Shown piece after piece: positions 8,189 through 53,337 of a DNA stretch of 64,000 bases. The first letter of the stretch is position 1, and each line of letters begins with the position of its first letter. Both the position numbers and the translations under genes were made by a program. Under the pieces are notes generated by a model. That model had not been told where the DNA came from and did no database searches. It saw only the letters and a program-made list of their open reading frames with translations. The DNA lies in NCBI GenBank assembly GCA_020429915.1, contig JAGQKV010000019.1, positions 17,282-81,281 of the forward strand, written 5' to 3'. The DNA comes from Candidatus Omnitrophota bacterium. Its GTDB lineage: Bacteria > Omnitrophota > Gorgyraeia > Zapsychrales > Zapsychraceae.

Positions 8189-8328
8189 TCCTCCGTCCCC
8201 GGTACGCGTATCTTACCTTACTGTTCAAAAATTGTACATACCTTGTGCCTAATCTTTAGGCAAATTGTAAGCATACTAACTGCAACATATTACATCAATT
8301 TACCAATCCGTATTCGCTGCCTTTTATC

Positions 8329-8372
8329 TTGACAGAAAACCCCGCTTCTCTATAATTGTAGTTGTTCAACAA
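8329..8372 (+). promoter_or_regulatory. Consensus sigma70 promoter (TTGACA-N16-TATAAT) with a downstream palindrome TTGTTcAACAA at the predicted transcription start
   Basis: TTGACA at 8329-8334, TATAAT at 8351-8356, perfect palindrome TTGTT-C-AACAA at 8362-8372 containing GTTCAAC. Sits in a ~230-nt AT-rich gap at the start of the glycan island. Confidence 0.45.
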
Positions 8373-8421
8373 ATGAACGAAATCCCCCGGAAACTTCAAA
8401 ATTCTTCAATTCGAGGCCCTT

Positions 8422-21176: not shown

Positions 21177-21180
21177 CGTT

Positions 21181-22218
21181 ATGTCCACCTACATAGAGAA
21201 TATTTTGGCCAAAGCTCCTTATGTGATTGCCGAAGCCGGCATCAACCACAATGGCGACCGTGCGCTGGCCCGTGATATGATCGACGCCGCCAAGGAAAAC
21301 GGCGCGGATTGCATCAAGTTTCAGAGTTTTTTGGCTGACAAGTATATCTCCAGGAAGGCGGGCCGTGCGGGTTACCAGAATCAATCTTCGGTCGGCGGTA
21401 AAAGTCAGCATCAGATCATTCAGGAAACGGAAATGAGCCAGGAGATGTATATCGAATTGTGCGCACATGCCGCCAAAAGAGAGATCGATATCTTATCCAC
21501 GCCTTTCGAAGTCTGGAGTTTCCGTTCACTGATGGAGTTGAAGGTCCCGGCCGTCAAGATCAGCTCCTGCAATCTTACGAATTATCCTTTTTTGCGGGAG
21601 ATCTCCGCGACGGGTGTGCCCGTCCTATTGTCCACAGGGATGGGGACCTTGGAGGAGGTGGATAAGGCGGTGACGATATTTAAGGAGAGCGAATCGCCGC
21701 TTATTTTATTTCAGTGTACGTCCAATTATCCGTCCAGGATTGAGAATGCGAATTTAAATGTCCTTAAGACTTACCAGCAGCGTTATGAAGTGCCGGTGGG
21801 TTTGTCGGACCACACACCGACGCATACCACCTGCATTGCGGCGGTGGCTTTGGGTGCGGTCGCCTTGGAGAAACATTTTACGTTGTCCCGGAAGCTTCCG
21901 GGTATCGATCAACAAGCCTCTATAGAGCCGCGGGAACTCAAAGAACTGGTGACCGCCGTGCGGGATTGCCGGAAGGCATTGGGCAGTGCCGAGAAAATGC
22001 GTTCGGATGAAGAGGAAGACACGTTTGTCGCGTTGCGGCGAAGTTTGGTGGCCGCCCGGGATTTGACCAGCGGGGAAGTATTGACCGAGGAGATGATCGC
22101 CATTAAGCGCCCGGGCAATGGATTGACGACGGAATATTTGCCGCGGCTGGTCGGAAAAAAGCTCTCGCGGGATATCGGGGAAGACGAGTTGCTGCGCCTG
22201 GAGGATTTTGGTGACTGA
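21181..22218 (+). CDS. NeuB-family nonulosonate synthase, third paralogue
   Basis: IAEAGINHNGD, IKFQSF and a C-terminal SAF domain. RBS AAGGAG before the ATG at 21181 (the track ORF started 123 nt upstream inside the previous gene). Confidence 0.85.
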   Translation: MSTYIENILAKAPYVIAEAGINHNGDRALARDMIDAAKENGADCIKFQSFLADKYISRKAGRAGYQNQSSVGGKSQHQIIQETEMSQEMYIELCAHAAKREIDILSTPFEVWSFRSLMELKVPAVKISSCNLTNYPFLREISATGVPVLLSTGMGTLEEVDKAVTIFKESESPLILFQCTSNYPSRIENANLNVLKTYQQRYEVPVGLSDHTPTHTTCIAAVALGAVALEKHFTLSRKLPGIDQQASIEPRELKELVTAVRDCRKALGSAEKMRSDEEEDTFVALRRSLVAARDLTSGEVLTEEMIAIKRPGNGLTTEYLPRLVGKKLSRDIGEDELLRLEDFGD

Positions 22219-30690: not shown

Positions 30691-31194
30691 ATGGGACGTG
30701 TCTATTGGATAACCGGCCTGTCCGGCGCCGGAAAAACGACCATTGCCGAAGCCTTGTTGAAGGCTATCCGGGAGGCGGGGCAGTCCGCGGTATTTCTCGA
30801 CGGAGATCAATTGCGGGAGGTGTTCGGCCGGCGCGAGGCCTATCAGCGGGAGGACCGCCTGGATTTGGCCCTGCAGTATGCGCGGTTGTGCAAGATGCTG
30901 AGTGAACAGGGATTGACCGTGATCTGCGCGACGATATCGTTATTTAAGGAAGTGCATGCCTGGAACCGGGAGCACATTCCCGGTTATACAGAAATCTTCC
31001 TGAAAGTCCCATTGGACGTCTTGCGGGCGCGTGATTCCAAGGCTATCTACAGCCAGGCGGCGGAAGGAAAATTGCAGCAGGTCATGGGGGTGGACATCCC
31101 GCATGATGAGCCGCCGAGCCCGGATCTGGAAATCGTCAATGACGGAAGCCGGTCACCGGCGGAGATCGCCAGGATTATTTATGAGCTTCATTGA
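30691..31194 (+). CDS. CysC/APS-kinase-homologous small kinase (Cj1415-like, candidate cytidine diphosphoramidate kinase)
   Basis: P-loop GLSGAGKTT and LDGD motif; 167 aa. First gene of a five-gene block that matches the MeOPN pathway. Confidence 0.75.
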   Translation: MGRVYWITGLSGAGKTTIAEALLKAIREAGQSAVFLDGDQLREVFGRREAYQREDRLDLALQYARLCKMLSEQGLTVICATISLFKEVHAWNREHIPGYTEIFLKVPLDVLRARDSKAIYSQAAEGKLQQVMGVDIPHDEPPSPDLEIVNDGSRSPAEIARIIYELH

Positions 31195-33532
31195 AACCAC
31201 ATTCAAATTCGGGACCAAAGCGGAAACACTGGAACGGATCGGACCGTTACTGGAAACGATCCGCTGTCCCCAGTTGTTTTATTTTACCGTCACCGATTGG
31301 CGGACCGACGCGCAGGGTTGTCTGAGCAAGGCCCGCGCAATGTATGCTGATGCGGTCCGGATGGTGGTCCGCAGCAGCGCCCAAGGGGAGGACCGCCAAG
31401 AATCATCTATGGCCGGCGCGTATTGCAGCGTCCTGAATGTGACTCATGACAAGCTGACCGAAAGCATCGAGACGGTCATAAAATCGTATGGTGGTCACGG
31501 CGGTGATCAGGTCCTTATTCAGCCGATGATATCGGATATTGCCGTCAGCGGAGTTATTATGACGCGCAATCTGGAAGACGGCGCCCCGTACTATGTGATC
31601 AACTACGATGATCTGTCCGGCAAGACCGATTCGATTACCGGAGGCGTCGGCGTCCATAAGACGGTTTTGGTAAGCCGTGACTGCGACGAGGCCAACTTCG
31701 ATTCGCGCCGGTTAAAGGCCATGGTGCGGCTGGCCAAGGACGTGGAAAAGATTACTCGCGACACACCCGTCGATATCGAATTCGCGCTGGGCGAGGACCT
31801 TGTTCCCTATTTATTTCAGGTGCGGCCCATCAGCGTGTGTCAGAACTGGGACGGCCGTATGGCGGATCAGGTCCGGGAATCCATTCCGCACGTCGAACGG
31901 CTCGTTCGCGAGCAGTCGGCGCGGCAACCCGGCATTTACGGTGACCGGACGATCCTGGCCAATATGTCCGACTGGAATCCCGCCGAGATGATCGGGGTGC
32001 ATCCGGACCCGTTGGCGGCGAGCCTCTACCGTGAATTAATCACCAAGTATGTGTGGCAGCGCGCGCGGGCCGAAATGGGATACTATGGGGTCGACGCGGA
32101 ACTGATGACTTTTCTGTACGGTCAGCCGTATATTGACGTTCGCCTCAGTTTTAATTCTTTTTTACCGGAAGACTTATCGACGGACGTGTCCGAGAAACTG
32201 GTGAACGCGTGGCTGGACCGCTTGGACCGTCATCCGGAACTGCATGACAAGGTGGAGTTCGACGTCGCCCAGACGTGTCTGGATTTTTCTTTTGACCGCG
32301 ATTTGGACGAACGCTATCCCGGATTGCTCAATAAGGCGGAGCGCGAGGAATTCCGTACGGCGTTGAGGACTTTGACGCAGCGGGCGTTGACGCTGGATTC
32401 CGGAAATACGCTGTCGCAGGCGATGGAGCGGATCCGCGGGCTCGCGGAGAGGCAGCGGCAGGAGCGGCATCCTACGTTAAAGGACCTGGTGGAGGAGTGC
32501 AAGCTGGAGGGAACGCTGCCGTTTTCGATGATCGCCCGGCACGCGTTTATTGCGGAGAAGATTCTCCGATCGGCGGTGGAATCCGGGGCCTTAACCGAAG
32601 AACGGCTGCAGCAGTTCAAGACGTCCGTGCACACGGTGACGAGCGCGATGGCCGGCGATTTGAAGAAGGTCGCCGAGCAGACCATGCCGCAGGAAGAATT
32701 TCTTAAGGAGTACGGTCACCTGAGACCCGGAACGTATGATATCCAGTCCCTGTCCTACCGGGACAGGTCCGCGCTGTTCGCGGGAGGCATCCGGTTGCCG
32801 GAACGGCGGCACACCGAAGATTTTGAACTAAACCCGGAAGAGGCACGGCGTTTGAATGCCCTGTTGGCCGGGGCCGGATTGACGGTGGCGGCGACGGATC
32901 TTCTGGTACATGCCCGTCTGGCGATCGAAGGCCGGGAATATGCCAAGTTCGTCTTTACCCGCAATATATCCGAGATCCTGGAAATGCTTGTCGGATGGGG
33001 CGAAAGGCACGGGTACTCCCGGGAAGATTTGGCGTGTTTGACCATCCACGATTTTCTGTCGGTTGAGGACCCTCAGCACCTGGCTGGCCGAATAGCAGAG
33101 GTCAGCGATGCCGTCCGCCGGGAACAGGCGCTCAGCCGGCATTTAAAACTCAGCTATCTGATTCGCGGCGTGCGCGACATATATATCGTTCCCCTGCATC
33201 GCAGCGCCCCCAATTTTATCGGGCAGGTCCGGATTACCGGAGAGACCGTGATCCTCGACGCGCATTCCGGGGCGGAAGTGGATATTGAAGGTAAGATCGT
33301 TTGTATCGAAAATGCGGACCCCGGTTTCGATTGGATATTCACCAAGGGTTTAAAGGCGCTGATCACAAAGTTCGGCGGGGCGAATTCCCATATGGCGATC
33401 CGCTGCGCCGAATTCGGATTGCCGGCCGCGATCGGTTGCGGGGAGGAAGTCTTTCAGCGTGTCGTGGACGCCGGACATGTCGAGCTGAACGGTTCGGATA
33501 AGACGTTGCGGCCGATCGGAATGGAGTCGTGA
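31181..33532 (+). CDS. PPDK/PEP-synthase N-terminal (ATP-grasp) domain plus C-terminal PEP-utilising swivel phosphohistidine domain, with no PEP-binding TIM barrel; rifampin-phosphotransferase / Cj1418 (L-glutamine kinase)-like
   Basis: 783 aa. The mobile-domain signature GGANSHMAIRCAEFGLPAAIGCG lies at the extreme C-terminus (the PEP synthase arrangement would put it in the middle). Start at the ATG at 31181, overlapping the upstream stop by 14 nt. Confidence 0.7.
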   Translation: MSFIETTFKFGTKAETLERIGPLLETIRCPQLFYFTVTDWRTDAQGCLSKARAMYADAVRMVVRSSAQGEDRQESSMAGAYCSVLNVTHDKLTESIETVIKSYGGHGGDQVLIQPMISDIAVSGVIMTRNLEDGAPYYVINYDDLSGKTDSITGGVGVHKTVLVSRDCDEANFDSRRLKAMVRLAKDVEKITRDTPVDIEFALGEDLVPYLFQVRPISVCQNWDGRMADQVRESIPHVERLVREQSARQPGIYGDRTILANMSDWNPAEMIGVHPDPLAASLYRELITKYVWQRARAEMGYYGVDAELMTFLYGQPYIDVRLSFNSFLPEDLSTDVSEKLVNAWLDRLDRHPELHDKVEFDVAQTCLDFSFDRDLDERYPGLLNKAEREEFRTALRTLTQRALTLDSGNTLSQAMERIRGLAERQRQERHPTLKDLVEECKLEGTLPFSMIARHAFIAEKILRSAVESGALTEERLQQFKTSVHTVTSAMAGDLKKVAEQTMPQEEFLKEYGHLRPGTYDIQSLSYRDRSALFAGGIRLPERRHTEDFELNPEEARRLNALLAGAGLTVAATDLLVHARLAIEGREYAKFVFTRNISEILEMLVGWGERHGYSREDLACLTIHDFLSVEDPQHLAGRIAEVSDAVRREQALSRHLKLSYLIRGVRDIYIVPLHRSAPNFIGQVRITGETVILDAHSGAEVDIEGKIVCIENADPGFDWIFTKGLKALITKFGGANSHMAIRCAEFGLPAAIGCGEEVFQRVVDAGHVELNGSDKTLRPIGMES

Positions 33533-35684: not shown

Positions 35685-35728
35685 TTTTCAAGATTATACC
35701 GGTGCTCCATAAAAAAGAGGAGGTTTAA

Positions 35729-36231
35729 ATGTCAAATTTGAAGAGAGTTTTGGTTCTGACCTTGGTCTTGATGCTCTCAGTCGGGGGGGGGACGCATTTG
35801 CTAAATCCGGAAGCGCGGTAACCCCTTACGTTAAATCCAGGTATACGTCGAGTTCATCGTATGCCCATTTTCATGTATACGTTTCGAATATTACCTCGAG
35901 CAGCATCAATGTATCGGTTACATTTTACGACGAAAGTGGAACCATCGTCACGGATGGTGATGATAGTCCCAGCACGGGATCGATACGAAATGATACCGGC
36001 ACGGTAACAAATTGGGATGATGCACCCACGTCATCAAGTGTGTCGTTTACCTTGGGAGGCAATGAAACGACAGCGATCCATTTTCGGCCGTCTTCTTTGA
36101 CTTCAGGGTACGCTATTATCGAATGGAGCCAGGATGGCGACAATGTGGTGGGGTTGGTCGCCAGCATTCTGAGAGAGCACTATGGCGATGGATTCAGCGT
36201 TGAGCCCATAAACAACGGGCTGCCGTTCTAA
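35729..36231 (+). pseudogene. Frameshifted (candidate phase-variable) gene for a secreted Ser/Thr-rich ~167-aa protein; the frame is broken at a G9 homopolymer
   Basis: RBS AAGAGGAGG then ATG at 35729 encoding signal peptide MSNLKRVLVLTLVLMLSVGGG. A G9 run (35783-35791) is followed by a stop at 35819. A +1 G (G10) or -2 G (G7) would fuse to the downstream frame (open to 36231) giving ...DAFAKSGSAVTPYVKS...EPINNGLPF. The tail of that frame is the track ORF 36040..36231. Confidence 0.5.
35783..35791 (+). repeat. Homopolymeric G9 tract, candidate slipped-strand phase-variation site
   Basis: Nine consecutive G read directly from the sequence, located at the frame break of the 35729 ORF. Confidence 0.8.
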
Positions 36232-36306
36232 ATAGTTTTAAAATAATATAGTGGGGTGCCGGTATCACTCTAGGCTGTATTCAGGTAACTCTAAACAGGA
36301 TAATGT

Positions 36307-37440
36307 ATGCACGAGGGTCCTAAGATAATTTTTCTGGTCTGCGCCGGGCGCACCGGTTCCAGTTTTCTGCATACGTTGCTGGATTCGCATCCGGAGGTGT
36401 TAATGCTGCCGATGGAATTGTCTTTTTACCGGATGTGGGACCGGCTGGGCTGTGATCAGGTTAAGGACGCTGAGGAAATGGTCCGCCGCTGGACCGAGCA
36501 ATCGAAGCTGGCCAAATTGGCGGACAACGTCAATTACGGTATCGACGGCTCCACCAACGCGTATACGAGTTGTGATTTCCCGATCTTCCGGGACAGGTTT
36601 TTGTGTCTTCTGCGGGAGACTTCGCTCAGCCGCCGGGATGTCTTTTACGCGATCCACCGGGCGTATGCCGATGCCACCGGGGGGGATCTGTCCCGGTATC
36701 AGGTGATCATCGAGTTTTCCGCCATTTACATCGATATCGGCCGTGCCGTGGAGGACTTTCGGGAACCGCGGTTTATCCAGGTGGTGCGCGACCATCGGGC
36801 GACGTATGCCTCGATCAAACAGCATTTTTTGAACACGCGCCGCGGATTGTTCAACCTGCGGGGCAAGACACTGGAGCAAAAGTTGTCATTAATCCGGATC
36901 TTTAACAATTTTATCCGGACGATCAACAAACTGCGCGCGGGATTCGCCGCGCTCCCCGCTGATCATGTGCTGTACGTGAAACAGGAGGACTTGCATCTGA
37001 ATCTTGAGCCGACCATGCGGGAGGTCGCCGGGTGGTTGCAGATCGCATATGAGCCGTGCCTGCTGCACAGCACCCTGGCCGGTCATCCCTGGCAGGGCAA
37101 CAGCGCTTTCGGTAAGGCCGTCGCCGGAGCGACCCCGGAGGTGACCCGCCGCTGGATGACGACACTCAGTCCGCAGGAAATCCGGGTCATCGAGTATGTA
37201 TTCGGTGATGACATGGAGCGATTCGGTTACGCGTATTCCGCCGCTCGGCGGCCTTCGCGGTGGCAGGTTACGTGTGGAGGATTAATTCCTTTCCGCGGAG
37301 AGCTGGCCATCCTCGGCCGAAGCGCCAGACATATTGCCTTGGATATTATGAAGTGGCCGCTGCGCCTGGGGGCCTATCTGATGAGCCGGTTCTATCTGCT
37401 ACGGATCATCGCCGACGGAAAGAGGTTCGTGAATGGCTAA
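36307..37440 (+). CDS. Sulfotransferase-family protein (second copy)
   Basis: N-terminal P-loop-like FLVCAGRTGSSFL (5'-PSB) and VVRDHRATYAS (3'-PB RD.R) motifs; 377 aa. Confidence 0.6.
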   Translation: MHEGPKIIFLVCAGRTGSSFLHTLLDSHPEVLMLPMELSFYRMWDRLGCDQVKDAEEMVRRWTEQSKLAKLADNVNYGIDGSTNAYTSCDFPIFRDRFLCLLRETSLSRRDVFYAIHRAYADATGGDLSRYQVIIEFSAIYIDIGRAVEDFREPRFIQVVRDHRATYASIKQHFLNTRRGLFNLRGKTLEQKLSLIRIFNNFIRTINKLRAGFAALPADHVLYVKQEDLHLNLEPTMREVAGWLQIAYEPCLLHSTLAGHPWQGNSAFGKAVAGATPEVTRRWMTTLSPQEIRVIEYVFGDDMERFGYAYSAARRPSRWQVTCGGLIPFRGELAILGRSARHIALDIMKWPLRLGAYLMSRFYLLRIIADGKRFVNG

Positions 37441-38443
37441 GGTCCGCGTGGGTATTATCGGCTGCGGGAACATCGCGGGCCTGAATGAGAGTGACCCGTA
37501 CCGGCAGAAGCCCTGCACCCATGCTGGGGCATACAGCCGGCGGCAGGATGTTGAGATCGTCGGATGTTGTGACAGCGACGCCGGACGCGGCCGTGATTTC
37601 GCGCAGCGTTTCAGCATTCCCTGCGCGGTGACGAAGATCGGGCAGCTGCTGGACTTGCGGCCGGATGTCGTCAGTATCTGTGTTCCGTACCGCGCGCACC
37701 GCCGGATAGTGCAGCAGGTCGCGGGTCACCAAAACAGGCCCGCAAAGATCCTGCTGGAAAAGCCGATCGCGCACAGCGGCAAGGACGCTCAGGCGGTGGC
37801 GGATATCTGCCGGGAGAACGGCGTCCGGCTGTATGTCAACAACAGGAGGCTCTCGCCGTTTTACCGGAAGCTGCGCCGCATGGTCCGGGAAGATTTTCAT
37901 GACGAGGTGATCGCCGCCACCGCGTGGTGCTCGTCGGGCATGCACACGATCGGGATTCACATGGTGGACCTGCTGTGCAGTATCTGCGGGGAACCGTTGT
38001 GGGTAAGCGCCCAGAAGGAAGCGGCGCAAATCGAACGGCTGCCCTACAGCCACAACTTTACTCCGGACGATGACCGGTACCGGGCGGTCCTCGGTTACGC
38101 CAGAGACTTCGAGGCGGTCATCATTAATACGGCCCGCACCCGCTTCACGTATTTTGAGGTGGAGTTCTTGTTTCCCAACGGCCGGATCCGTGCCGTGGAT
38201 AATGGCCGGACGCTGATCGTACAGAAAATGGGAAGGCCGGGAAAATCAACCTTGTCGTACCGGCTGGCCGCGGAAAAACAGGTTGCCGTACAGGATAAAC
38301 CTTTATTTCAATTGGTCATCGACGAGGTCCTGACGGGGGATTACGACACATCCGCGGTAAGAGGAGAAGAAGCCCTGAAGAGTTACCGGGTGATCGAGGC
38401 CATGCGCCGGTCGGCGCGCACACAACGAAAGGTAAGTTTGTGA
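37433..38443 (+). CDS. Gfo/Idh/MocA-family oxidoreductase (second copy)
   Basis: VGIIGCGNIAG Rossmann motif, LLEKPIA motif; 336 aa. Confidence 0.8.
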   Translation: MAKVRVGIIGCGNIAGLNESDPYRQKPCTHAGAYSRRQDVEIVGCCDSDAGRGRDFAQRFSIPCAVTKIGQLLDLRPDVVSICVPYRAHRRIVQQVAGHQNRPAKILLEKPIAHSGKDAQAVADICRENGVRLYVNNRRLSPFYRKLRRMVREDFHDEVIAATAWCSSGMHTIGIHMVDLLCSICGEPLWVSAQKEAAQIERLPYSHNFTPDDDRYRAVLGYARDFEAVIINTARTRFTYFEVEFLFPNGRIRAVDNGRTLIVQKMGRPGKSTLSYRLAAEKQVAVQDKPLFQLVIDEVLTGDYDTSAVRGEEALKSYRVIEAMRRSARTQRKVSL

Positions 38444-39177
38444 ACGAAAAACCACTGCGCATCATAGCGGTGATCACCGCCCGGGGCGGATCCAAGGGAT
38501 TGCCCGGGAAAAACATCATAGATCTCGCCGGGAAACCGCTGCTGGCATATACCGTTGAGGCGGCCCTGCAGTCGCGTTACGTTGAGACGACGGTCGTCTC
38601 GACGGATGACGAAAAGATTCGCGAGGTCGCCCTGGCCGCCGGCGCCGAGGCACCTTTTTTGCGACCGGCCGAACTCGCCTCGGATACCGCGCATTCTCCG
38701 GATGTGGTGAGCCACGCGGTGGAATATTATGAGAAGCGGGACGGGAAAGACTACGACCTGACCGTCATGCTGCAACCGACGTCTCCGTTCCGGACCGGAC
38801 GGCATATCGACGAGGCGATCGAGAAGTTCCTGGAGGACCGCACGCTGGATTCTCTCATCTCTATTAAGAAACAGGATTATCCGCCCTGGTGGATGTTCAC
38901 CACGGAGGGAGCGCGGCTGCGGCCCGCGTTTCACTTTAAGGACGGGGTCAACGTGTTTAATCTGGAGCGCCAGGAATTCCCCACGGTTTACCGCCCGAAC
39001 GGCGCCATTTACGTTACCTGGAGAGAGTATTTAAAGAAGACCGGTTCGATTGTGAATCCGGAGAACAACGGTTATTACGTCATGAGCGAAGCGGATTCCA
39101 TCGACATCGATCTGAAAGCGGATCTGTACGCCGCCGAGTATGAAATGCAACTGCGCCTCGGGAACACGGTGACATGA
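38440..39177 (+). CDS. Acylneuraminate cytidylyltransferase (CMP-nonulosonate synthetase; NeuA/PseF/LegF-like)
   Basis: IAVITARGGSKGLPGKN signature; 245 aa; GTG start in a GTGA overlap. Confidence 0.85.
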   Translation: MNEKPLRIIAVITARGGSKGLPGKNIIDLAGKPLLAYTVEAALQSRYVETTVVSTDDEKIREVALAAGAEAPFLRPAELASDTAHSPDVVSHAVEYYEKRDGKDYDLTVMLQPTSPFRTGRHIDEAIEKFLEDRTLDSLISIKKQDYPPWWMFTTEGARLRPAFHFKDGVNVFNLERQEFPTVYRPNGAIYVTWREYLKKTGSIVNPENNGYYVMSEADSIDIDLKADLYAAEYEMQLRLGNTVT

Positions 39178-40130
39178 CATCAGGCTTAACCTTTGGGGAA
39201 GTCAGCAGCGCCGATCTTTGGAATGATTTGAACCGGCATGCACCGGCGGGAAATGTCTTCTTACGCTGGGATCTCCTGCAGGCGCTTCCGGTACGCGCCG
39301 TGTGTCACGGATGTTTCGAGGAAGGCCGGTTGATCGCCGGGTGTCCTTTTTTTTACAACCGGGACGACGGAAGTCCAGAGGGCATCAATCCGTTTATGAT
39401 GTATCAGGGATTGATCATCCGTGATGCTGAGTCCGGTACGCATCATCACGCGATCACGCGGAATTTCGAGATCCTGACGGAATTTCTGCCGTACCTCGCG
39501 GGATTTCGGCCAGTCGCGGGTATGCAGTCCTGGCGGCACAGAGATATGCGCCCATTTCTCTGGCACAATTACCATGCGCCTGAGAAGGGGATGTTTGTGG
39601 TCAAACCGAAATACACCGCGGTGATAGATTTGACGGAGTATGCGTCTTTCGGGGACTATGTGGCATCGACGCGGAGCATACGCCAACGGGAGCTGAAAAA
39701 GGCGCGCGCGATCCGGATCAAGAACAGCGCCGATGTTCAGGCGCTGGTAACGCTGCACGACTTGACTTACGGCCGGCAGGGGAAGGACGTTGCCGATCCC
39801 TTGGACTTCCGGCGCGCCGTCGTCACCGATGCGCTGGAGAAGGGGTACGGCGCGTTGTGGGAGGCGAATACGGAAGCGGGAGAGCGGGTGTCCATGATTT
39901 TCACGTTAGCGGATGAACAAAGCGCTTATTACTTGTTTGGGGCCAACCATCCCGATTACCGGTCGACCGGGGGATCGACCAAACTGATGTTCGCCTGTAT
40001 CGAACAGGCCATGGAACAGGGTTTGGCGGCCTTTGATTTCTGCGGCGTTAATTCGCCCAACCGGGGAGACTATAAAATCAGTTTTAATGCGCAACTCAAA
40101 GAATATTGCACGTTCCGATTGGATGGATGA
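39174..40130 (+). CDS. GNAT-fold acyltransferase, FemAB/CelD-like
   Basis: 318 aa; the C-terminal acyl-CoA N-acyltransferase-like region resembles FemAB/BioF2-like families. Confidence 0.5.
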   Translation: MTSGLTFGEVSSADLWNDLNRHAPAGNVFLRWDLLQALPVRAVCHGCFEEGRLIAGCPFFYNRDDGSPEGINPFMMYQGLIIRDAESGTHHHAITRNFEILTEFLPYLAGFRPVAGMQSWRHRDMRPFLWHNYHAPEKGMFVVKPKYTAVIDLTEYASFGDYVASTRSIRQRELKKARAIRIKNSADVQALVTLHDLTYGRQGKDVADPLDFRRAVVTDALEKGYGALWEANTEAGERVSMIFTLADEQSAYYLFGANHPDYRSTGGSTKLMFACIEQAMEQGLAAFDFCGVNSPNRGDYKISFNAQLKEYCTFRLDG

Positions 40131-42250
40131 GCATGCTGTCGCTAAATATAGTTAGAGACAAATCCGGAATCCGGCCGGTCTCGACGGTGATCGTGGACCG
40201 TGTGGGCTGGCGGATGTGGGCGTATTTGATGTCGGGCCGGCGTTTGTCCGGGACACGGCGGCTGCTGGTGATGCCGTGTGCCTCGGCCTGGACATCCTGG
40301 CGCGGCCCGTCGACCGGGGGGGCAACCGGCCGGTCCTGGACGGAAAGGGCCGCGCTGGCCATGCTTCGCCGCCGTTATCCGGATGTGACGGTAGAGCGGC
40401 TGGGGGCCCGGGATTATCGCAGCGTGCTGACCGAAGCCGGTGTGTTGGCCGCTTCTTTGGCGGACACGCTGGTGGATCAATGTGACCATACGGGAACCCG
40501 CTATATGGCCATGTACAAGGGCCTCTTAGGCGGCAGCGACGATGTTCTGATCGCGATCAAGAAATTGATCTGCGCGGATCTGGAGGATTTGATTTGTTCG
40601 CTGCTGTTGGCGGCGAAGTTCGATCCGCGGGACAGCGTAGTGCTCATCGATTCCGCCAGAAATGCCAGTTTGATCGAGACACTGATCGATCAGGGGGGCA
40701 TCCGCAAACAAGCCGATGGTCAGGATTGCCGGTTCCAGGGCTCTCCGGCAAACCGGCAGGCGCAGGCGGCCGGCGCGGCCGCGGTGAATACCTTGTTGTT
40801 GTGGGGCATGATACTCAGGACACTGGTCACGCGGTGCCGATTCACCGCCCCCGCAAATATTATTCGTGCCAAAGTGGCTTGCCGGAATCTGTATAAAACC
40901 GAACGCCGCCGTCCCGGGGATACCCATTGCCTCAACTGGGGTGATATGGCCTTTCTGTTGGACGAGACTCATTTTACGGTGGACGACTTTGTGGTGTTGG
41001 CCAGCAACCGGCCGCCGGATACAAAAATCCGTCACGCGGACTCCTATCGGCAGTCCGATCTGCGGGTCTACGACATTCGCAAGGCTCGTCTGCCGTTGAA
41101 TCGGGCCGCCAAACGATTGGCCTCCCAAGGGATCACGGGAATGCGGCTGATATGCTCCGACCATCCCGGGGCCGTGGCCCGGATCGCCTGCGGCTATCTG
41201 CCGTTTTTCCTGGCGGAATACAATAAATGGCTGGCCATTTGCGCGAATGTCCGCTTCACGGCGTATTTGGACATCAACGAACATTCGTATGCGCATATCA
41301 TTCAAAAGATGGCCTTGTCCGAATGCGGCGCACACATTGTTTATTTGCCGCACGGGTATATGGAGCGGATCGGGCCGCAAAAATCTTTTATGTCCTACGC
41401 CTTGATGCTGTCTCCCGGGGAACATCTGGTGCGGGCGTTCGGCCAGTATTGGCCCGGCGACATGGCGGTTGAGATCGTGGGCAACATGAAGAATGAAGCG
41501 GTGGGAGCCGGGGAAGGCGAGCTGGCCGACCAGGGACTTCAAAAGCTGTTCACCGAGGCCCGTCGCGACGGGGGACGCGTGATTACGGCCGTTTTCGGAT
41601 CTTGTCTGGAAGATGAACTGCTCATGGACCGTTATGAACGTATGCTGGACTTTTTGGCTGAAGTCATGGAGGAAAATCCCGGTGTACAGGCCTTTGTCAA
41701 GTTCAAGACACCGCGCCAGACGGAGAAGTTCCGGAGAAAGCGGATGTTTGATCTGCTGGAAGGGCTGTTAAAAGGCGGCCGGGTGCATCTGGTGGACGGA
41801 GACCGTTACCAGGCAACGGTTCAGGCCATGGCCGTGCAATCGGATGCCGTCATCAGCGTCTCCGGCTACAATCAATCGGTCAGCACGGCGTGGGTGGAAT
41901 CCATGTTGCTGGGAAAACCGTCTTTGGCCTTTAACCCGGAGGCAAGCTGCGGTGAGACGCCTCTGTTGGATGATTATTACGATCAGTATATCTTTCGCTC
42001 GGAGGCGAAACTGAAGGCGGCTTTGGACCGCGTTCTCAACGGACACGCGGGAGACGGGAGTGTCAGCCCTATGGCGAAGCGGGATTTTGATCCCTTCTGT
42101 GACGGCGGCACCATGAACCGGATTCGACGGGCCTTATACGCTTTCGCGGAGAACCCGGGGCAATACAGTTGTGGGATTCCTTCGGTCGGCGCAATACGTG
42201 CGGCGGCCGGGGATAAATATTGCCGCCAGGAAGGAATATGTGCCTCATGA
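40127..42250 (+). CDS. Large putative glycan-modifying transferase (uncharacterised) whose 5' region shows a reading-frame discontinuity at a G7 tract
   Basis: ~707-aa ORF. Between ~40214 and 40322 the annotated frame has an out-of-frame composition (R/S/W/T-rich; codon position-1 GC ~50%, position-2 ~75%). The +2 frame has a coding-like signature (position-1 GC 89%, position-2 53%; ..VGVFDVGPAFVRDTAAAGDAVCLGLDILARPVDRGG). That frame rejoins the main frame exactly at G7 (40316-40322). The C-terminal 550 aa are coding-like. Confidence 0.5.
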   Translation: MSMLSLNIVRDKSGIRPVSTVIVDRVGWRMWAYLMSGRRLSGTRRLLVMPCASAWTSWRGPSTGGATGRSWTERAALAMLRRRYPDVTVERLGARDYRSVLTEAGVLAASLADTLVDQCDHTGTRYMAMYKGLLGGSDDVLIAIKKLICADLEDLICSLLLAAKFDPRDSVVLIDSARNASLIETLIDQGGIRKQADGQDCRFQGSPANRQAQAAGAAAVNTLLLWGMILRTLVTRCRFTAPANIIRAKVACRNLYKTERRRPGDTHCLNWGDMAFLLDETHFTVDDFVVLASNRPPDTKIRHADSYRQSDLRVYDIRKARLPLNRAAKRLASQGITGMRLICSDHPGAVARIACGYLPFFLAEYNKWLAICANVRFTAYLDINEHSYAHIIQKMALSECGAHIVYLPHGYMERIGPQKSFMSYALMLSPGEHLVRAFGQYWPGDMAVEIVGNMKNEAVGAGEGELADQGLQKLFTEARRDGGRVITAVFGSCLEDELLMDRYERMLDFLAEVMEENPGVQAFVKFKTPRQTEKFRRKRMFDLLEGLLKGGRVHLVDGDRYQATVQAMAVQSDAVISVSGYNQSVSTAWVESMLLGKPSLAFNPEASCGETPLLDDYYDQYIFRSEAKLKAALDRVLNGHAGDGSVSPMAKRDFDPFCDGGTMNRIRRALYAFAENPGQYSCGIPSVGAIRAAAGDKYCRQEGICAS
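40316..40322 (+). repeat. Homopolymeric G7 tract at a frame-switch point, candidate phase-variation site
   Basis: Seven consecutive G; G6 or G9 would place the upstream coding-like frame in register with the downstream ORF. Confidence 0.7.
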
Positions 42251-42274
42251 AGCCCAAAGTAAGTGTGTTATGTA

Positions 42275-42324
42275 TTGACCGCGCGGGCGCAGGCATTATA
42301 ATCAAAAATGTTCAATTGTTGAAC
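42275..42324 (+). promoter_or_regulatory. Consensus sigma70 promoter (TTGACC-N16-TATAAT) followed by the inverted repeat GTTCAA-ttg-TTGAAC (candidate operator)
   Basis: TTGACC at 42275-42280, TATAAT at 42297-42302, palindrome at 42310-42324. ~240 nt upstream of the radical SAM gene, in a local low-GC gap. Confidence 0.45.
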
Positions 42325-42561
42325 GCAGAAGTGTCTCGAGGAGGGTCAGCTTATGCTGATCCTTGCGATTTTAATCCGGAGCAGCAGCCGCTTCGCCGCA
42401 GTTTGCGGCGTTCCGGTTTCAGTAGAATCATTAAATTATTCGGATCTCGTTTTGGGAAAGTGGACACGGGTGAGTTAGATCCTGATGCCAAGGTAAAATT
42501 CGGAGATGGGAATAGACGCATGCTCATCGCAACGTAATCGAATGCCAACAAAGGAGAAATC

Positions 42562-43683
42562 ATGGGAACACTGCCTTTGCAGAAATCAAAAATAGATCTG
42601 GGCGGCAACGACAAATTTCGCGAGTACGGCCGGCAGCGGCAGATAAAACACTTCGAGACCGAAGAGTTTTTGGAGTACCGGCGCCAGTGGTTTGAGTGCC
42701 CGGAAAAGATGATTGTGCCGGAATATCCGCTTAACCTCGACATACATGTCACCAACCGTTGCAATCTGCGTTGTCCGTTCTGTCCGCGGACATGGAAGGA
42801 TTTAGGCGGCCATTATGATGAATACGGGCTTATGAGCATGGAGCTCTACAAGCGGATCATCGATGAAGGCGTCCCTCACGGGATTAAGGCGATTCAGCTC
42901 ACCGCCGACGGCGAGCCGCTTTTGCACCCCAAGCTTGAGGAAATGATCGCCTATGCCCGTGAAGCGGGAGTCATTGATATCATTGTCCATACCAGTGCCG
43001 CTTCTCTGACCGAAAAACGTTCCCGAAAGCTTTTGGACGCGGGATTTCACCGGTTGGCGATTTCCTTCGATTCACCGGATAAAGAGACCTACGAAAAGCT
43101 GAGGGTGGGCGCCAAGTTCGAAAAGACATTGGAGAACATCAAGACGTTCGTGCGGCTGCGCGATGAGGGGGGGTATGAACTGCCGACGGTCCGTGTTCAA
43201 ATGGTCGATCAGAAGATTAATATGCATCAACGGGACGATTTCGATAAATTGTTCATGGATATCGCCGATACCGTCGGCCACATCTATTACATCGATTACT
43301 TCGGCGGCCCGCAGACGTATTTGGATACCAGTAAGCTCGGTGTGAATGATTTTAAGGTAGGCAAGAGCAAACTGAAGCAGGACTTTAAATGTTCCTATTT
43401 GTGGCAGCGCCTGATCATCCAGTGGGACGGGGAGGTGTTTCCGTGTTTTTACGGCGACACGTTGCTGGATAAGGGAAAAGGCAAGGACCTGTTGCTGGGT
43501 AACGCCAATGACATCAGCATTCACGACATTTGGCACGGGCAGGCCATGAAGCAACTGCGCCAGCTGCATTCCGCGGGCAAGTTTACCTGCAATAAGACCT
43601 GCAAGGACTGCGGCCGTCAATACGACACCTACGAGGATGAACTTCCCAAAGACGACTGGAACGGCATCGGCGGCGTGGGTTAA
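42562..43683 (+). CDS. Radical SAM enzyme with C-terminal SPASM/twitch-type Cys-rich domain
   Basis: CxxxCxxC cluster motif NRCNLRCPFCP. The C-terminal cysteines (CSYLW...CFYG...CNKTCKDC) are typical of SPASM auxiliary-cluster domains. RBS AAAGGAG. Confidence 0.8.
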   Translation: MGTLPLQKSKIDLGGNDKFREYGRQRQIKHFETEEFLEYRRQWFECPEKMIVPEYPLNLDIHVTNRCNLRCPFCPRTWKDLGGHYDEYGLMSMELYKRIIDEGVPHGIKAIQLTADGEPLLHPKLEEMIAYAREAGVIDIIVHTSAASLTEKRSRKLLDAGFHRLAISFDSPDKETYEKLRVGAKFEKTLENIKTFVRLRDEGGYELPTVRVQMVDQKINMHQRDDFDKLFMDIADTVGHIYYIDYFGGPQTYLDTSKLGVNDFKVGKSKLKQDFKCSYLWQRLIIQWDGEVFPCFYGDTLLDKGKGKDLLLGNANDISIHDIWHGQAMKQLRQLHSAGKFTCNKTCKDCGRQYDTYEDELPKDDWNGIGGVG

Positions 43684-43697
43684 GAACAGGACAGGAT

Positions 43698-45584
43698 ATG
43701 TGCGGGATAGCGGGGATTCTCAATCAAGACGGACGGGGCGTAGATGGCGACGGGCTGAGGTCCATGGTTGCGTCCCTCAGTCACCGCGGTCCGGATGACG
43801 AAGGGCTGTACACCGACGGAAGTCTCGGGCTCGTTCACCGGCGTCTGTCGATCTTTGACTTGAGTCCCATGGGCGCCCAACCTATGGAAAGCCGGGACGG
43901 ACGTTATGTGATTGTGCACAACGGGGAAGTGTACAACTGGAAGGAGGTACGGCTCGGCCTCCGGTTCGACCGGTGGAAATCGCAAACGGATACCGAGACC
44001 ATCCTGTACGCCTTTATTGAACACGGAGAGAAATGCCTTCAGCTGTTCAACGGCATGTTTGCCTTCGGGATATGGGACAGGACCGAACGCAGGCTCTTTT
44101 TGGCCAGGGACCGGGTCGGCATCAAGCCGTTGTTCTACGGCATCCAGGACGGGCGCTTTTATTTCGCTTCCGAGATTAAGGCTTTGTTCGCGGGGGGATT
44201 CGCTCGCGAAGTCAATCCGGCCGCGATTTATGATTTCCTCCGCTGGGGCGCCATTGATCATCACCCCCAAACATTCTTTAAGAATATCCGTTCAGTCGAA
44301 CCCGGACACTGTTTAACCGTCGGTACGGATCTTGCGATCAGAGAACGCTGCTACTGGTCGCTGCCGGAGGCCGTTCAGGATGCCGGACAGCGCGACGAGC
44401 CGGACATTATCGAAGAATATATCGGATTGCTGCAGGATTCCATTCGCCTGCGTCTGCGGTCCGATGTCGAAGTCGGTTTGTTTTTGAGCGGAGGCGTGGA
44501 CAGTTCCATATTGGCTGCCCGTATGGCGGCGGAGAATCCCGCGAGCCTTCCCCGGTCGTTCACCTATGAATTCGCCTCTTCCGGCGAAGGAGAGGGAGCG
44601 TACGCGGAAGAAGTGGCGCGGCATTTGGGCCTGAACAATACCGTCGTGGCATTGTCCGAGCGTGAGATCCCGGATTATTTTACCAAGGCGATTTATCATC
44701 AGGAGCAACCTGTTACCTCCATCCGCTGCCTGGCGTCGCAAAAGTTATACGAGCAGGTGCGCGTCTCTTCACTCAAAGTGATTCTGGAAGGCCACGGCGG
44801 AGATCAGCTCGGAGGAGGATTCGAATACTATTTTCTGCCCGCGGTGCTGGATACGGCGGCCCAGCAGGGACCCGCGGCTGCCATTGAATTATTGGACCGG
44901 TTCATGCAACTGTACGGTGTCTCCGAGGATGCGCGTTACCGTAAACTGTCCAACGCCCTGCTCGCCGCAAAGTATCCGGGCATCGCCACGCAGGACGGCA
45001 TTTCATTTGTGAAACCGGAGCTGCTTCACCCGGACTTTATTGAGTCTTTCGATCGTAAGCGCGTGGCGTATGGCAGGCCGTTTGTCGAGGAGCTCCTCAA
45101 CGCCCAGTATATTGACTTTCGTCATCACAATCTGCCCCGCGTCCTGCGCTACACCGACAGGGAGTCCATGGCTTCGGGTGTGGAGGCGCGGGTGCCGCTT
45201 CTCGACCACCGTATCGTTGAGCTATGCTTCTCATCAACGCTGAAGGCGCGGGTTAAAGACGGCCAACAACGTTATTTTATGCGCCGGGCGGCGGAACGCC
45301 TGCTGCCGGAAGAAATGTTGAACCGGCCGAAACGCAGTATCGTTGATCCGCAGCGGCAATGGTTACAGAGAGACTTGCGGCCGTGGATCGAAGATCTTTT
45401 TCGATCGGCCAGCTTTGCCGGGCGGGGCATTTTCGATGTGCCTAAAGTGATCGCGGAATACGAACGTTATTGCGCCGATCCCCAACCGGTCACCGGGTTT
45501 CATATTTTTCAGTACGTTAATATCGAGATGTGGTTCCGCACGATGGTCGACAATCTCTCTGAGAAAGTGGTGTGTACCCAATGA
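43698..45584 (+). CDS. Asparagine synthase (glutamine-hydrolysing)-family amidotransferase, PseA-like
   Basis: N-terminal MCGIAGIL with the Cys2 nucleophile of Ntn amidotransferases; AsnB-type synthetase domain (SGGVDSS PP-loop); 628 aa. Confidence 0.85.
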   Translation: MCGIAGILNQDGRGVDGDGLRSMVASLSHRGPDDEGLYTDGSLGLVHRRLSIFDLSPMGAQPMESRDGRYVIVHNGEVYNWKEVRLGLRFDRWKSQTDTETILYAFIEHGEKCLQLFNGMFAFGIWDRTERRLFLARDRVGIKPLFYGIQDGRFYFASEIKALFAGGFAREVNPAAIYDFLRWGAIDHHPQTFFKNIRSVEPGHCLTVGTDLAIRERCYWSLPEAVQDAGQRDEPDIIEEYIGLLQDSIRLRLRSDVEVGLFLSGGVDSSILAARMAAENPASLPRSFTYEFASSGEGEGAYAEEVARHLGLNNTVVALSEREIPDYFTKAIYHQEQPVTSIRCLASQKLYEQVRVSSLKVILEGHGGDQLGGGFEYYFLPAVLDTAAQQGPAAAIELLDRFMQLYGVSEDARYRKLSNALLAAKYPGIATQDGISFVKPELLHPDFIESFDRKRVAYGRPFVEELLNAQYIDFRHHNLPRVLRYTDRESMASGVEARVPLLDHRIVELCFSSTLKARVKDGQQRYFMRRAAERLLPEEMLNRPKRSIVDPQRQWLQRDLRPWIEDLFRSASFAGRGIFDVPKVIAEYERYCADPQPVTGFHIFQYVNIEMWFRTMVDNLSEKVVCTQ

Positions 45585-46930
45585 AGACAAAAGATTCTAA
45601 AGACGCCGCCTCATTGCGCGGTGCCCAACAGGGACCGGTCCGTACCGAACCTTTCCACTCATCCTGCTATGTAAGTGGTCAGGAGGAGGCCCTCCTTCTG
45701 GAATGCCTGCGCAGCCATCAGTGGTCGAGTTTTAAGGGGGGGACCGAAGGGCTGGATATAGACAAAGTGCTGGTGATGCCGTCACGGGAAGCGGCGGAGT
45801 ACGGGCCCTTGGACAACCGATTCCTCGGCGGGAAGTATGTCCGTGCGTTCGAGCGGGATTTTGCCGCCTGTATGGACGTCGATTTCGCCGTCAGCGCCAA
45901 TTCGGCCACGTCCGCGTTAATCATGGCCTTGGGGGCATTCAATCTGGAGCCGGGCGATGAAGTCATCGTTCCCTGCATGAGCTTCAATGCCACGGCCACA
46001 GCCGTCCTCGCCTACAATTGCATTCCGGTTTTTGCCGAGGTTAAAGCCAATACCTACTGTTTGGATCCTGCCGATTTAGAAAAGAAGATCTCCGGCCGGA
46101 CCAAGGCGGTCCTGGTGGTCCATCTGGGCGGGGCGTGCGCGGACATGACATCGATTGTTGAGGTGGCCCGCCGGCATGGACTTAAAATCCTGGAGGACTG
46201 CGCCCAGGCTCCCGGCGTAAAGTTCCAAGGACAGCCGGTGGGGACGTTCGGCGACGCGGGCGTTTTTTCTCTGACGGAGACCAAGAACATCACCTGCGGC
46301 GAAGGCGGTGTCCTGGTGACGCGTTGCCCGGACATAGCCGCCAAGGCGCGGCTTATCCGCAATCACGGCGAGGGTGTCACGCGCGATCAATGGAGTGACG
46401 GGCAACTGGCCAACGTCATCGGCATGAATTTTCGTCTAACGGAACTCCAGGCGGCCGTGGCGATTCCGCAGTTGCAGAGCCTGGAGGAACGCAACGAGGT
46501 GCGCCGCCGGAACACTTCATATTTGATTGACCGGCTGCGCAAGCACCCGTGTTTGATCCCCCCCGAGACCGAACCGGGGGGAGACTACGTCTGTTTTATG
46601 CTCAAGTGGCGGTATGTTCAAGGGGATCTTCCTCTTACCCGTGACGAGGTCGTCGCCGGACTGCAGGCGCAGGGGATTCCCATTATCAAGGGATATGGTC
46701 GTATGATGCATGAGAATCTGATTTTTACGCGGAAGATTGCGTATGGCCGCCAGGGATTTCCGTTTATTGCGCCATGGTTTGACGAGAAACGCGTCCGCTA
46801 CGGATCAGGCACGCAGCCCGTCAGTGAAGATCTCAACAAGCAGTTTATTTGGTTTAAGTACGTTAATCATCCGAACACCCAAGACGATATGGACGACGTC
46901 GTCCGGGCGTTTGATAAGGTGCTGGTATGA
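45581..46930 (+). CDS. DegT/DnrJ/EryC1/StrS-family PLP enzyme (third copy) with an ~80-aa N-terminal extension
   Basis: Aminotransferase core with a conserved Lys (FSLTETKNITCGEGG); ATGA overlap start at 45581. Confidence 0.75.
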   Translation: MKTKDSKDAASLRGAQQGPVRTEPFHSSCYVSGQEEALLLECLRSHQWSSFKGGTEGLDIDKVLVMPSREAAEYGPLDNRFLGGKYVRAFERDFAACMDVDFAVSANSATSALIMALGAFNLEPGDEVIVPCMSFNATATAVLAYNCIPVFAEVKANTYCLDPADLEKKISGRTKAVLVVHLGGACADMTSIVEVARRHGLKILEDCAQAPGVKFQGQPVGTFGDAGVFSLTETKNITCGEGGVLVTRCPDIAAKARLIRNHGEGVTRDQWSDGQLANVIGMNFRLTELQAAVAIPQLQSLEERNEVRRRNTSYLIDRLRKHPCLIPPETEPGGDYVCFMLKWRYVQGDLPLTRDEVVAGLQAQGIPIIKGYGRMMHENLIFTRKIAYGRQGFPFIAPWFDEKRVRYGSGTQPVSEDLNKQFIWFKYVNHPNTQDDMDDVVRAFDKVLV

Positions 46931-52940: not shown

Positions 52941-53337
52941 GGACGAGCGCGGCATGGTCCTGCACATGCTGCGCGCGGAGAATCCGCTTTTTGAACGGTT
53001 CGGCGAGATCTATTTTTCGTATGTGAATCCCGGATTTGTGAAGGGATGGAAGCAGCATCTGGAAATGACCCAGCATTTTTGCGTTCCCGTCGGGAACCTG
53101 CGTCTGGTCCTGTTTGACGACCGGCCGGATTCGCCGACGCGAGGAGAAGTGCAGACGATCGAGATGGGTCTCGATCATTACTGCTTGGTGAAGATCCCCC
53201 CACAGGTGCTGTATTCCTTTTCTGCTGTCGGGGAACAACCGGCTATGATCGCCAACTGCGCGGACATGCCGCACCGGCCGGATGAGTCGGTCACCCGGCC
53301 GCTGGATGACAAGGAGATCCCCTATCAATGGACGTAA
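52900..53337 (+). CDS. NDP-4-keto-6-deoxyhexose 3,5-epimerase (RmlC-like cupin)
   Basis: MIDGVRVEPLKKFEDERG N-terminus and cupin core typical of RmlC-family epimerases. Start at the internal ATG at 52900 (the track ORF was extended upstream into rfbG). Confidence 0.65.
   Translation: MIDGVRVEPLKKFEDERGMVLHMLRAENPLFERFGEIYFSYVNPGFVKGWKQHLEMTQHFCVPVGNLRLVLFDDRPDSPTRGEVQTIEMGLDHYCLVKIPPQVLYSFSAVGEQPAMIANCADMPHRPDESVTRPLDDKEIPYQWT

Follow-up and report, generated by a model that had tools for sequence, protein, structure and literature searches.

A glycan locus in the metagenome-assembled genome of a Candidatus Omnitrophota bacterium holds a gene for a radical S-adenosylmethionine (SAM) enzyme directly behind an intergenic gap. 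The arrangement raises the question of what reaction the enzyme carries out and what signals the gap contains. The stretch analyzed here, called the window throughout, comprises 64,000 nucleotides of contig JAGQKV010000019.1 (assembly GCA_020429915.1). The locus runs on its plus strand from ∼8.4 to ∼62.9 kb, more than 50 kb in all, and the gene for the 373-residue enzyme lies at 42562–43683 on the plus strand (MCA9394942.1). A sequence-only reading of the same DNA had offered two roles for the enzyme: maturation of a ribosomally synthesized peptide with post-translational modifications (RiPP) encoded by a short open reading frame (ORF) in the gap, or modification of a sugar. The interpretation favored here, to which comparison of sequences lends a probability of about 0.6, is that a repressor-controlled internal promoter precedes a BtrN-like enzyme that would oxidize a sugar and feed a transamination.

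The probable internal promoter and its putative operator

The gap (42251–42561) lies between the gene for a 714-residue protein and the radical SAM gene. It measures 311 nt, one more than the sequence-only reading had counted, and its low GC content was correctly recognized (0.47 against 0.54 for the whole window). That reading regarded the operon as otherwise gapless, which proved wrong, as gaps of 622 nt (35685–36306) and 387 nt (52941–53327) occur in the same gene array. The consensus promoter that it placed in the gap is present. This promoter, P2 (42275–42302, plus strand), consists of TTGACC (42275–42280), a 16-nt spacer and TATAAT (42297–42302), agrees with the consensus at 11 of 12 positions, and has the hexamers and the spacer length (16–18 nt) of a sigma-70-type promoter. 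P2 is the top promoter-like site between 36 and 52 kb, and only one other site in the whole window agrees at 11 or more positions (8329–8356, 12 of 12). The number of promoter-like matches in the region is not above that of shuffled sequence (9 observed, 10.8 in shuffles). A promoter-like site on the minus strand (42322–42295) was discounted, as it is read as the mirror of the palindromic ATTATAAT plus operator and is followed by no gene on that strand.

A palindrome downstream of the −10 element, also pointed out by the sequence-only reading, is the second component of the gap. The palindrome reads GTTCAAttgTTGAAC, and the putative operator O2 is placed at 42310–42324 (GTTCAATTGTTGAAC), a 15-bp GTTCA-N5-TGAAC element 7 nt past the −10 element of P2 and over the predicted transcription start (+1), a position that implies repression. 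The same layout stands at the head of the locus (8329–8378, plus strand), where promoter P1 (TTGACA-16-TATAAT, 8329–8356) is followed after 7 nt by operator O1 (GTTCAACAAATGAAC). This copy sits in a 233-nt gap before a gene for a winged helix-turn-helix (wHTH) protein (8422–8961). The composite motif TTGAC-N17-TATAAT-N7-GTTCA-N5-TGAAC has exactly two matches in the 64 kb, both free of mismatches, and none in 100 shuffles, which excludes a chance origin of the palindrome. Both copies are intergenic, and the 16-nt spacer and the 7-nt distance from the −10 element to the palindrome are the same in each. The functional positions alone are common to the two copies; their spacers and flanks are unrelated, an observation that speaks against recent duplication.

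The palindrome itself is equally rare. Exact GTTCA-N5-TGAAC occurs only twice in the window, at 8364–8378 and 42310–42324, and the longer form GTTCAA-N3-TTGAAC, with at most one mismatch, has three matches against 0.06 expected. A weaker third site, operator-like in sequence (GTTCAAAAATTGTAC, 8223–8237), lies ∼100 nt upstream of P1. One further GTTCA-N5-TGAAC-like site, at 25365, was taken as chance: it carries one mismatch, is intragenic, and 1.8 such sites are expected. In a near-identical strain (L018; the codes L001–L031 denote the related loci and contigs that were compared with the window), the −35 element of P2 reads TTGACT, not TTGACC (window position 42280). The P1 promoters of all related lineages examined likewise have TTGACT.

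Comparison with the closest relative, L001, suggests another origin for the gap, namely that it is the scar of a lost methyltransferase gene and that the promoter is incidental. A gene for a 339-residue SAM-dependent methyltransferase (8982–10001 of L001) occupies precisely the place of the gap, and the lower GC content and the orphan ORFs of the gap are in keeping with gene loss. However, no residual methyltransferase similarity was found in the gap (best tblastn E = 0.09, gap alone), and a scar would leave the exact second copy of the P1/O1 layout unexplained. This origin is therefore very unlikely.

The gene behind P1 is the first of the glycan operon and encodes a regulator of 179 residues (8422–8961, plus strand), the candidate binder of O1 and O2. 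The regulator passes the cut-off for HTH_24 (33.8 bits against 21.9) and falls short of that for the MarR family (PF01047; 21.6 bits against 24.6). A total of 584 homologues were found, and every one named by a source is from Omnitrophota. The structural model (predicted local distance difference test, pLDDT, 84) comprises an N-terminal wHTH, a long helix of 38 residues and a C-terminal alpha/beta domain. Fold matches are confined to the wHTH and are MarR/RosR-like; the alpha/beta domain is unmatched.

The control region of the regulator gene was compared among six further Omnitrophota lineages (L021/L022, L023, L025/L026, L027, L028 and L029), in which the regulator is 50–65% identical and its gene opens a sugar-nucleotide/glycan operon in each case. 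All six carry TTGACT-16-TATAAT followed by GTTCA-N5-TGAAC upstream of the gene, in DNA that has otherwise diverged. The distance from the −10 element to the palindrome is usually 6 nt in these lineages; it is 2 nt in L025, counted to the first of two tandem palindromes. The half-sites GTTCA and TGAAC are invariant across the seven lineages compared, and the distal GTTCAAnnnTTGTAC site is kept at the same distance in three lineages (L021/L022, L023 and L027). The palindrome, with at most one mismatch, occurs nowhere else in the loci of the six lineages, and the exact palindrome is absent from 16 radical SAM loci outside Omnitrophota. An inverted repeat that overlaps the regulator's own promoter and is kept among orthologues is the arrangement of an autoregulated wHTH repressor and its operator. 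The promoter-plus-operator interpretation of the sequence-only reading thus gains from the second copy before the locus's own wHTH gene and from its conservation in other Omnitrophota, and the unit is very probably real.

The conservation also bears on whether the palindrome acts in DNA or in RNA. It could serve as a 5′ RNA hairpin that stabilizes the transcript or occur by chance, and in the minimum-free-energy fold it does pair into a hairpin of 6 bp where the transcript is predicted to begin. Covariation decides neither way, since no variation occurs in the half-sites. Their sequence conservation is nevertheless strict, beyond what pairing alone would require; L025 carries tandem palindromes; and the related conserved site upstream of P1 lies beyond the −35 element, would not be transcribed, and hence argues for a DNA site and not an RNA hairpin. 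The invariant half-sites together with this conserved site upstream of the −35 element are the reason for reading the palindrome as a protein-binding operator, and a role as an RNA hairpin or an accident of sequence is unlikely. The fold of the predicted 5′ untranslated region is not significant (z = −1.3) and contains no attenuator or terminator, and an Rfam search of the gap returned no family, only two matches at chance level (E = 1.6 and 8.7).

Judged by position, the adjacent wHTH protein is most likely the binder of the palindrome, and it would repress its own promoter P1 as well as P2. The arrangement resembles that of MarR-type autoregulated repressors, which likewise combine a wHTH with a 15-bp inverted repeat over the +1 of their own promoter and have an additional operator at a further promoter within the locus. 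Unlike those repressors, the regulator carries its wHTH at the extreme N-terminus, joined to the 38-residue helix and the unmatched alpha/beta domain, and its MarR score is below the cut-off. No terminator-like site was found on the plus strand of the gap and no terminator is predicted before P2, which would re-initiate transcription for the packed genes from 42562 onward. The genes behind P2 would then share their regulation with the beginning of the locus; they encode the radical SAM enzyme, an amidotransferase, an aminotransferase, a methyltransferase, a kinase, a cytidylyltransferase, a phosphatase and a polymerase. The sequence-only reading placed the radical SAM gene under its own promoter. 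Promoter elements are present, but the gene is only the first of a long, tightly packed array, and P2 is better termed an internal operon promoter.

The radical SAM enzyme and the short reading frames

The radical SAM gene is preceded by the Shine-Dalgarno sequence AAGGAG (42551–42556), and its product belongs to the radical SAM superfamily (PF04055, 80.4 bits against a cut-off of 29.5). The CX3CX2C motif (C67, C71 and C74) and a GGE-type motif (G117 and E118) are invariant in an alignment of 29 sequences. In the C-terminal domain the conserved cysteines of the same alignment are C277, C295, C347 and C350 only, spaced as C277-X12-G290-X4-C295 and C347-X2-C350, with no cysteine at +5 or +3 thereafter. 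The SPASM domain is characterized by seven cysteines in the pattern CX9-15GX4C ... CX2CX5CX3C ... C. The enzyme exceeds the Pfam cut-off for SPASM (PF13186, 55 bits), but it has four of the seven cysteines of a two-cluster SPASM domain and lacks the second-cluster motif CX2CX5CX3C. A twitch domain is a shortened form of the SPASM domain with one auxiliary cluster, and in BtrN, whose reaction is described in the same work, this cluster has four cysteine ligands (PMC9012708). The four conserved cysteines of the enzyme suffice for one auxiliary cluster, and the C-terminal domain is therefore of the twitch type.

A profile of the enzyme family identifies the same relative. Among PDB sequences the best match is BtrN (116 bits, 1.4e-32), spanning both the core and the twitch domain. 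The twitch domain alone aligns to BtrN at 66 bits with all four conserved cysteines aligned one to one, as in a BtrN-type twitch domain with a single four-cysteine auxiliary cluster. Their counterparts in BtrN are C169, C188, C232 and C235, which we take to be the ligands of its auxiliary cluster. BtrN is the 2-deoxy-scyllo-inosamine dehydrogenase of butirosin synthesis (PDB 4M7T), and it shares the CX3CX2C cluster motif with the enzyme as well as the aligned auxiliary cysteines. At 250 residues it is shorter than the enzyme, which has an N-terminal extension of ∼55 residues and additional residues linking the core to the twitch domain. In the AF2 model of the enzyme (pLDDT 88), the extension consists of one strand and two helices.

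The enzyme belongs to no NCBIfam equivalog: the best model, TIGR04317, gives 116.6 bits against a cut-off of 380, and all 25 models listed, MoaA, PqqE, AlbA, NirJ and AhbD among them, remain far below their cut-offs. The family is also rare, with ∼90 clusters among 5.8 billion, and a scan of 185,579 representative species genomes with a narrower alignment returned one match, in a SAR11 genome.

These results allow the first of the two proposed roles to be judged. In a RiPP-like unit, a 41-codon ORF in the gap (42353–42478 including the stop, plus strand) would encode the precursor that the radical SAM/SPASM enzyme matures. The sequence-only reading gave the ORF 39 codons; the ORF and its GAGGAGG Shine-Dalgarno sequence (42338–42345, 8 nt before the ATG) are present, and the length is corrected to 41 codons, the number of residues in the peptide printed by that reading itself. 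The Pfam match to SPASM, the strong Shine-Dalgarno sequence and the annotation of the ORF by one gene caller speak for such a unit. The RiPP maturases PqqE, SuiB, AlbA, CteB and SkfB also share with the enzyme a radical SAM core, a Pfam SPASM match and a similar fold (template modeling score ∼0.55). Unlike them, the enzyme comes without the second-cluster motif, without a conserved precursor peptide and without a RiPP recognition element (RRE; no Pfam match to a PqqD-like domain). All models of RiPP maturases score far below their cut-offs (PqqE, 56 bits against 381; AlbA, 39 against 850). The family profile gives at most 64 bits with RiPP maturases (CteB 64, PqqE 56, SkfB 55, anSME 46 and SuiB 44), so that the comparison of sugar enzymes with RiPP maturases, suggested by the sequence-only reading as a check, prefers BtrN by more than 50 bits.

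The ORF itself behaves as an orphan. It has only self matches in the 5.8 billion clusters. The upstream gaps of homologous radical SAM genes measure 0–140 nt and none of them contains it, so that the conservation in related loci, for which the sequence-only reading proposed a test, is missing. An overlapping ORF of 99 codons (42238–42537, plus strand), preferred by another gene caller and called in L020, would contain P2 and O2; it has no relative among 1.84 billion representatives and no Pfam match at E ≤ 1. Both ORFs, and the DNA of the gap, are absent from related loci except for contigs that are 99.7–100% identical. Their codon-usage scores are non-coding-like (−0.04 for the 41-codon and −0.01 for the 99-codon ORF), as judged by same-length pieces that average 0.31 in true frames and about −0.4 off frame. 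The two ORFs are probably not genes but chance ORFs within the 5′ untranslated region. The enzyme is almost certainly not a RiPP enzyme, and the RiPP-like unit as a whole is largely refuted, with next to no probability left.

Gene context and the proposed sugar chemistry

The second role suggested by the sequence-only reading, the modification of a sugar, is supported by the BtrN match and the four-cysteine twitch pattern and by gene context. This context is kept in more than 12 independent loci, in which the enzyme ranges from 72% down to 33% identity, and which include SAR11 and an alphaproteobacterial metagenome-assembled genome (MAG). The recurring neighbors are CTP_transf_3 cytidylyltransferases (in nearly all loci), Acetyltransf_6 proteins (often adjoining), GFO/IDH/MocA oxidoreductases, a long DegT aminotransferase and NeuB. 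The radical SAM gene is syntenic with those for GFO, CTP_transf_3 and Acetyltransf_6 proteins in L001, L002, L004, L006, L007, L013, L016 and L030. Near its homologues, NeuB and CTP_transf_3 both occur in L002, L008, L009 and L030, NeuB in L012 and L014, and CTP_transf_3 in L031. In the loci compared, the gene always belongs to a nonulosonic-acid cluster and usually has one for a BtrS-like aminotransferase nearby. A sugar-tailoring role is thus highly probable.

The corresponding module of the window lies on the plus strand on both sides of the gap. Domain searches identify a GFO/IDH/MocA oxidoreductase (37433–38443), a CTP_transf_3 cytidylyltransferase (38440–39177) and a FemAB-like Acetyltransf_6 protein (39174–40130), and the gene for the 714-residue protein (40106–42250) then borders the gap. 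The amidotransferase and aminotransferase genes that the sequence-only reading saw after the radical SAM gene are indeed there. The former encodes an AsnB-type glutamine-hydrolyzing enzyme (43698–45584; N-terminal MCGI; TIGR01536, 405 bits against a cut-off of 267), and the latter, by domain search, a DegT-family protein termed DegT_c (45572–46930). DegT_c co-occurs with the radical SAM enzyme in L002, L003, L004, L008, L009 and L030 and directly adjoins it in L003 and L004. Its closest solved relatives are Gln:2-deoxy-scyllo-inosose aminotransferases (5w70, 1.4e-54; BtrR, 2.7e-51), and it also matches the Kdo8N transaminase (5k8b, 5e-45).

Taken together, these neighbors suggest a pathway. 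The enzyme would bind one auxiliary [4Fe-4S] cluster in its twitch domain and work on a small sugar in a nonulosonic-acid (sialic-acid-like) pathway. By abstraction of a hydrogen atom, it would most likely convert a hydroxyl of this sugar into a carbonyl, a two-electron oxidation that needs no oxygen. The BtrS-like DegT_c could turn this carbonyl into an amine, and the FemAB-like Acetyltransf_6 protein would then acylate the amine; the AsnB-type amidotransferase may convert a carboxylate to its amide or form an amidino group. BtrN and BtrS in butirosin synthesis are a parallel for the first two steps, and a DegT aminotransferase of the BtrS/BtrR type, the partner of BtrN, is likewise found near the radical SAM enzyme here. 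BtrN belongs to aminoglycoside clusters, whereas the enzyme is found in nonulosonic-acid and polysaccharide loci. The KdnB/KdnA route to Kdo8N in Shewanella follows the same logic, in which the hydroxyl of an ulosonic acid is oxidized and then transaminated. There, however, the sugar has eight carbons, and the oxidizing enzyme, KdnB, is no radical SAM protein but belongs to the iron-type alcohol dehydrogenases/oxidases. KdnB is listed as Kdo 8-oxidase (PMC5125639). The specific pairing of dehydrogenase and transaminase chemistry is tentative, and we rate it somewhat below even odds.

Several observations weigh against the favored interpretation. The enzyme is only ∼18% identical to BtrN and ∼120 residues longer, and a Foldseek comparison of its model with the PDB does not separate BtrN from SuiB, DesII and MoaA. 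BtrN is the best match among solved structures, a set that includes none of the twitch-type sugar epimerases and dehydratases NeoN, HygY and AprD4. DegT_c is missing near the radical SAM gene in L012 and L014. The 41-codon ORF has the strongest Shine-Dalgarno sequence in the window and could still be translated, and the regulator is linked to the operator solely by conserved position. In addition, the GFO/IDH/MocA oxidoreductase of the module could carry out the oxidation and leave the radical SAM enzyme another job.

The last point leads to the main rival, in which the regulation is the same and the enzyme performs another radical reaction on the sugar: the epimerization of an unactivated stereocenter as by NeoN or HygY, a 1,2-diol dehydration as by AprD4, or a decarboxylation as by BlsE. 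The twitch architecture is common to radical epimerases, dehydratases and decarboxylases of these kinds, many natural nonulosonic acids differ in stereochemistry only, and a GFO oxidoreductase is already at hand for NAD-dependent oxidation. BlsE, DesII and AbmM are also among the PDB matches of the family profile, but at 50, 48 and 54 bits their similarity is far weaker than that of BtrN, and the recurrence of a BtrS-like aminotransferase near the radical SAM enzyme favors oxidation. Such a reaction is possible, though we consider it clearly less probable than the BtrN-like oxidation combined with repressor control.

The best solved relatives of both the radical SAM enzyme and DegT_c are aminocyclitol enzymes, which suggests a different product. 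The module might make or modify an aminocyclitol attached to the glycan, as in 2-deoxystreptamine or streptamine synthesis, with an inositol-dehydrogenase-like GFO protein, a Gln:inosose aminotransferase-like DegT protein and a BtrN-like dehydrogenase. A kinase of the aminoglycoside phosphotransferase (APH) fold and xylose-isomerase-like TIM barrel proteins, both present in the locus, would suit this chemistry. Yet no inosose or 2-deoxy-scyllo-inosose synthase is seen among the annotated genes of the window, and across distant loci the radical SAM gene tracks those for NeuB and CMP-sugar synthetase. An aminocyclitol product is accordingly improbable, and a nonulosonic acid remains the favored substrate class.

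The wider locus has the content of a nonulosonic-acid cluster. It encodes three NeuB-type synthases (13954–15717, 15714–16760 and 21058–22218), of which the first (587 residues) is fused to a CTP_transf_3 cytidylyltransferase domain, and one further CMP-sugar synthetase; at least two CTP_transf_3 genes are present in the window. Three NeuB paralogues in one locus suggest the synthesis of at least two different nonulosonic acids. The locus also holds several DegT aminotransferases, many epimerases and dehydratases of the short-chain dehydrogenase/reductase type, an ATP-binding cassette exporter, a Wzy-like polymerase, glycosyltransferases and an initiating sugar transferase. Two adenosine phosphosulfate (APS) kinases and two Sulfotransfer_3 proteins are encoded within it (8979–9539, 30691–31194, 20088–21176 and 36307–37440), which points to a sulfated surface glycan. 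A protein of 833 residues with PPDK_N and PEP-utilizer mobile domains is encoded in the middle of the glycan operon (31031–33532).

Gene order in the closest relative, L001, whose radical SAM enzyme is 72% identical, runs sulfotransferase, GFO, CTP_transf_3, Acetyltransf_6 and a protein of 702 residues. The last (6883–8991 of L001) is 28% identical to the 714-residue protein at the same position in the window, which has no sequence match in Pfam, NCBIfam or the PDB. L001 has one more additional methyltransferase, encoded after the sulfotransferase and before the GFO protein, and the module is mosaic. In the alphaproteobacterial MAG (L002, 11077–12660), the gene for a B12-binding radical SAM protein directly follows that of the radical SAM homologue, and NeuB comes next, so that this nonulosonate cluster contains two radical enzymes.

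Homopolymer tracts and significance of the module

The G/C runs of at least 7 nt in the window are unevenly distributed. All six lie within 35783–46564, the module syntenic with L001 (clustering P ∼7e-4); ∼12.6 would be expected for the whole window, and none is found outside this module. One tract is intergenic (35783–35791, 9 nt) and five are inside ORFs (36679–36685, 40316–40322, 43167–43173, 45736–45742 and 46558–46564). The G7 tract of the radical SAM gene (43167–43173, codon 202) is G6 in three independent Logan assemblies, which splits the gene into 260 and 113 residues; 53 contigs carry the intact gene and three the frameshifted one. DegT_c holds a G7 tract (45736–45742) and a C7 tract (46558–46564), of which the former is G6, 1 nt shorter and with the frame shifted, in one assembly (L017). 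Each end of the contig in that assembly falls within another of the tracts.

Length differences of this kind may reflect slipped-strand phase variation, or an artefact of assembly or sequencing. Poly-G contingency genes are phase-variable in the glycan and flagellin-glycosylation loci of Campylobacter and Helicobacter. The tracts described here are likewise clustered within glycan-tailoring ORFs and differ by 1 nt between assemblies. In contrast with those genera, the tracts are 7 nt long (9 nt for the intergenic one) and the variants come from metagenome assemblies. The 622-nt gap between a methyltransferase and a sulfotransferase gene (35685–36306, GC 0.46) contains a G9 tract and short orphan ORFs only, and no strong promoter or operator could be recognized there. 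At the matching place of the syntenic relative L001, a gap is absent.

The most detailed version of the proposal adds these tracts to the module: the BtrN-like enzyme, the aminotransferase and the acyltransferase would equip a nonulosonic acid with an additional N-acylamino group, under the control of the wHTH repressor and of slipped-strand changes in the clustered G7 tracts. In this full form the proposal is speculative, and we regard it as doubtful. If it is true, the product would be an undescribed sialic-acid-like sugar, and its synthesis would be the first nonulosonate pathway with a radical SAM step. Full-text literature searches found no paper that joins radical SAM to nonulosonic, legionaminic or pseudaminic acids. 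In this Omnitrophota lineage, the module would also be under two-level control, by a phylum-wide wHTH repressor at two identical promoter–operator units and by G7 slipped-strand switching.

How bacterial surfaces are recognized is shaped by nonulosonic acids, a group made up of sialic, legionaminic, pseudaminic and related acids. The radical SAM family is uncharacterized, and its tight link to nonulosonate pathways from SAR11 to Omnitrophota makes it a defined candidate for new anoxic sugar chemistry. In kind, the finding amounts to a tailoring gene preceded by an internal promoter under repressor control, and it changes no long-standing question. For Omnitrophota, consensus sigma-70-type signals are readable directly in the genomes, and GTTCA-N5-TGAAC emerges as a candidate phylum-wide regulon motif for the glycan loci of an uncultured phylum.

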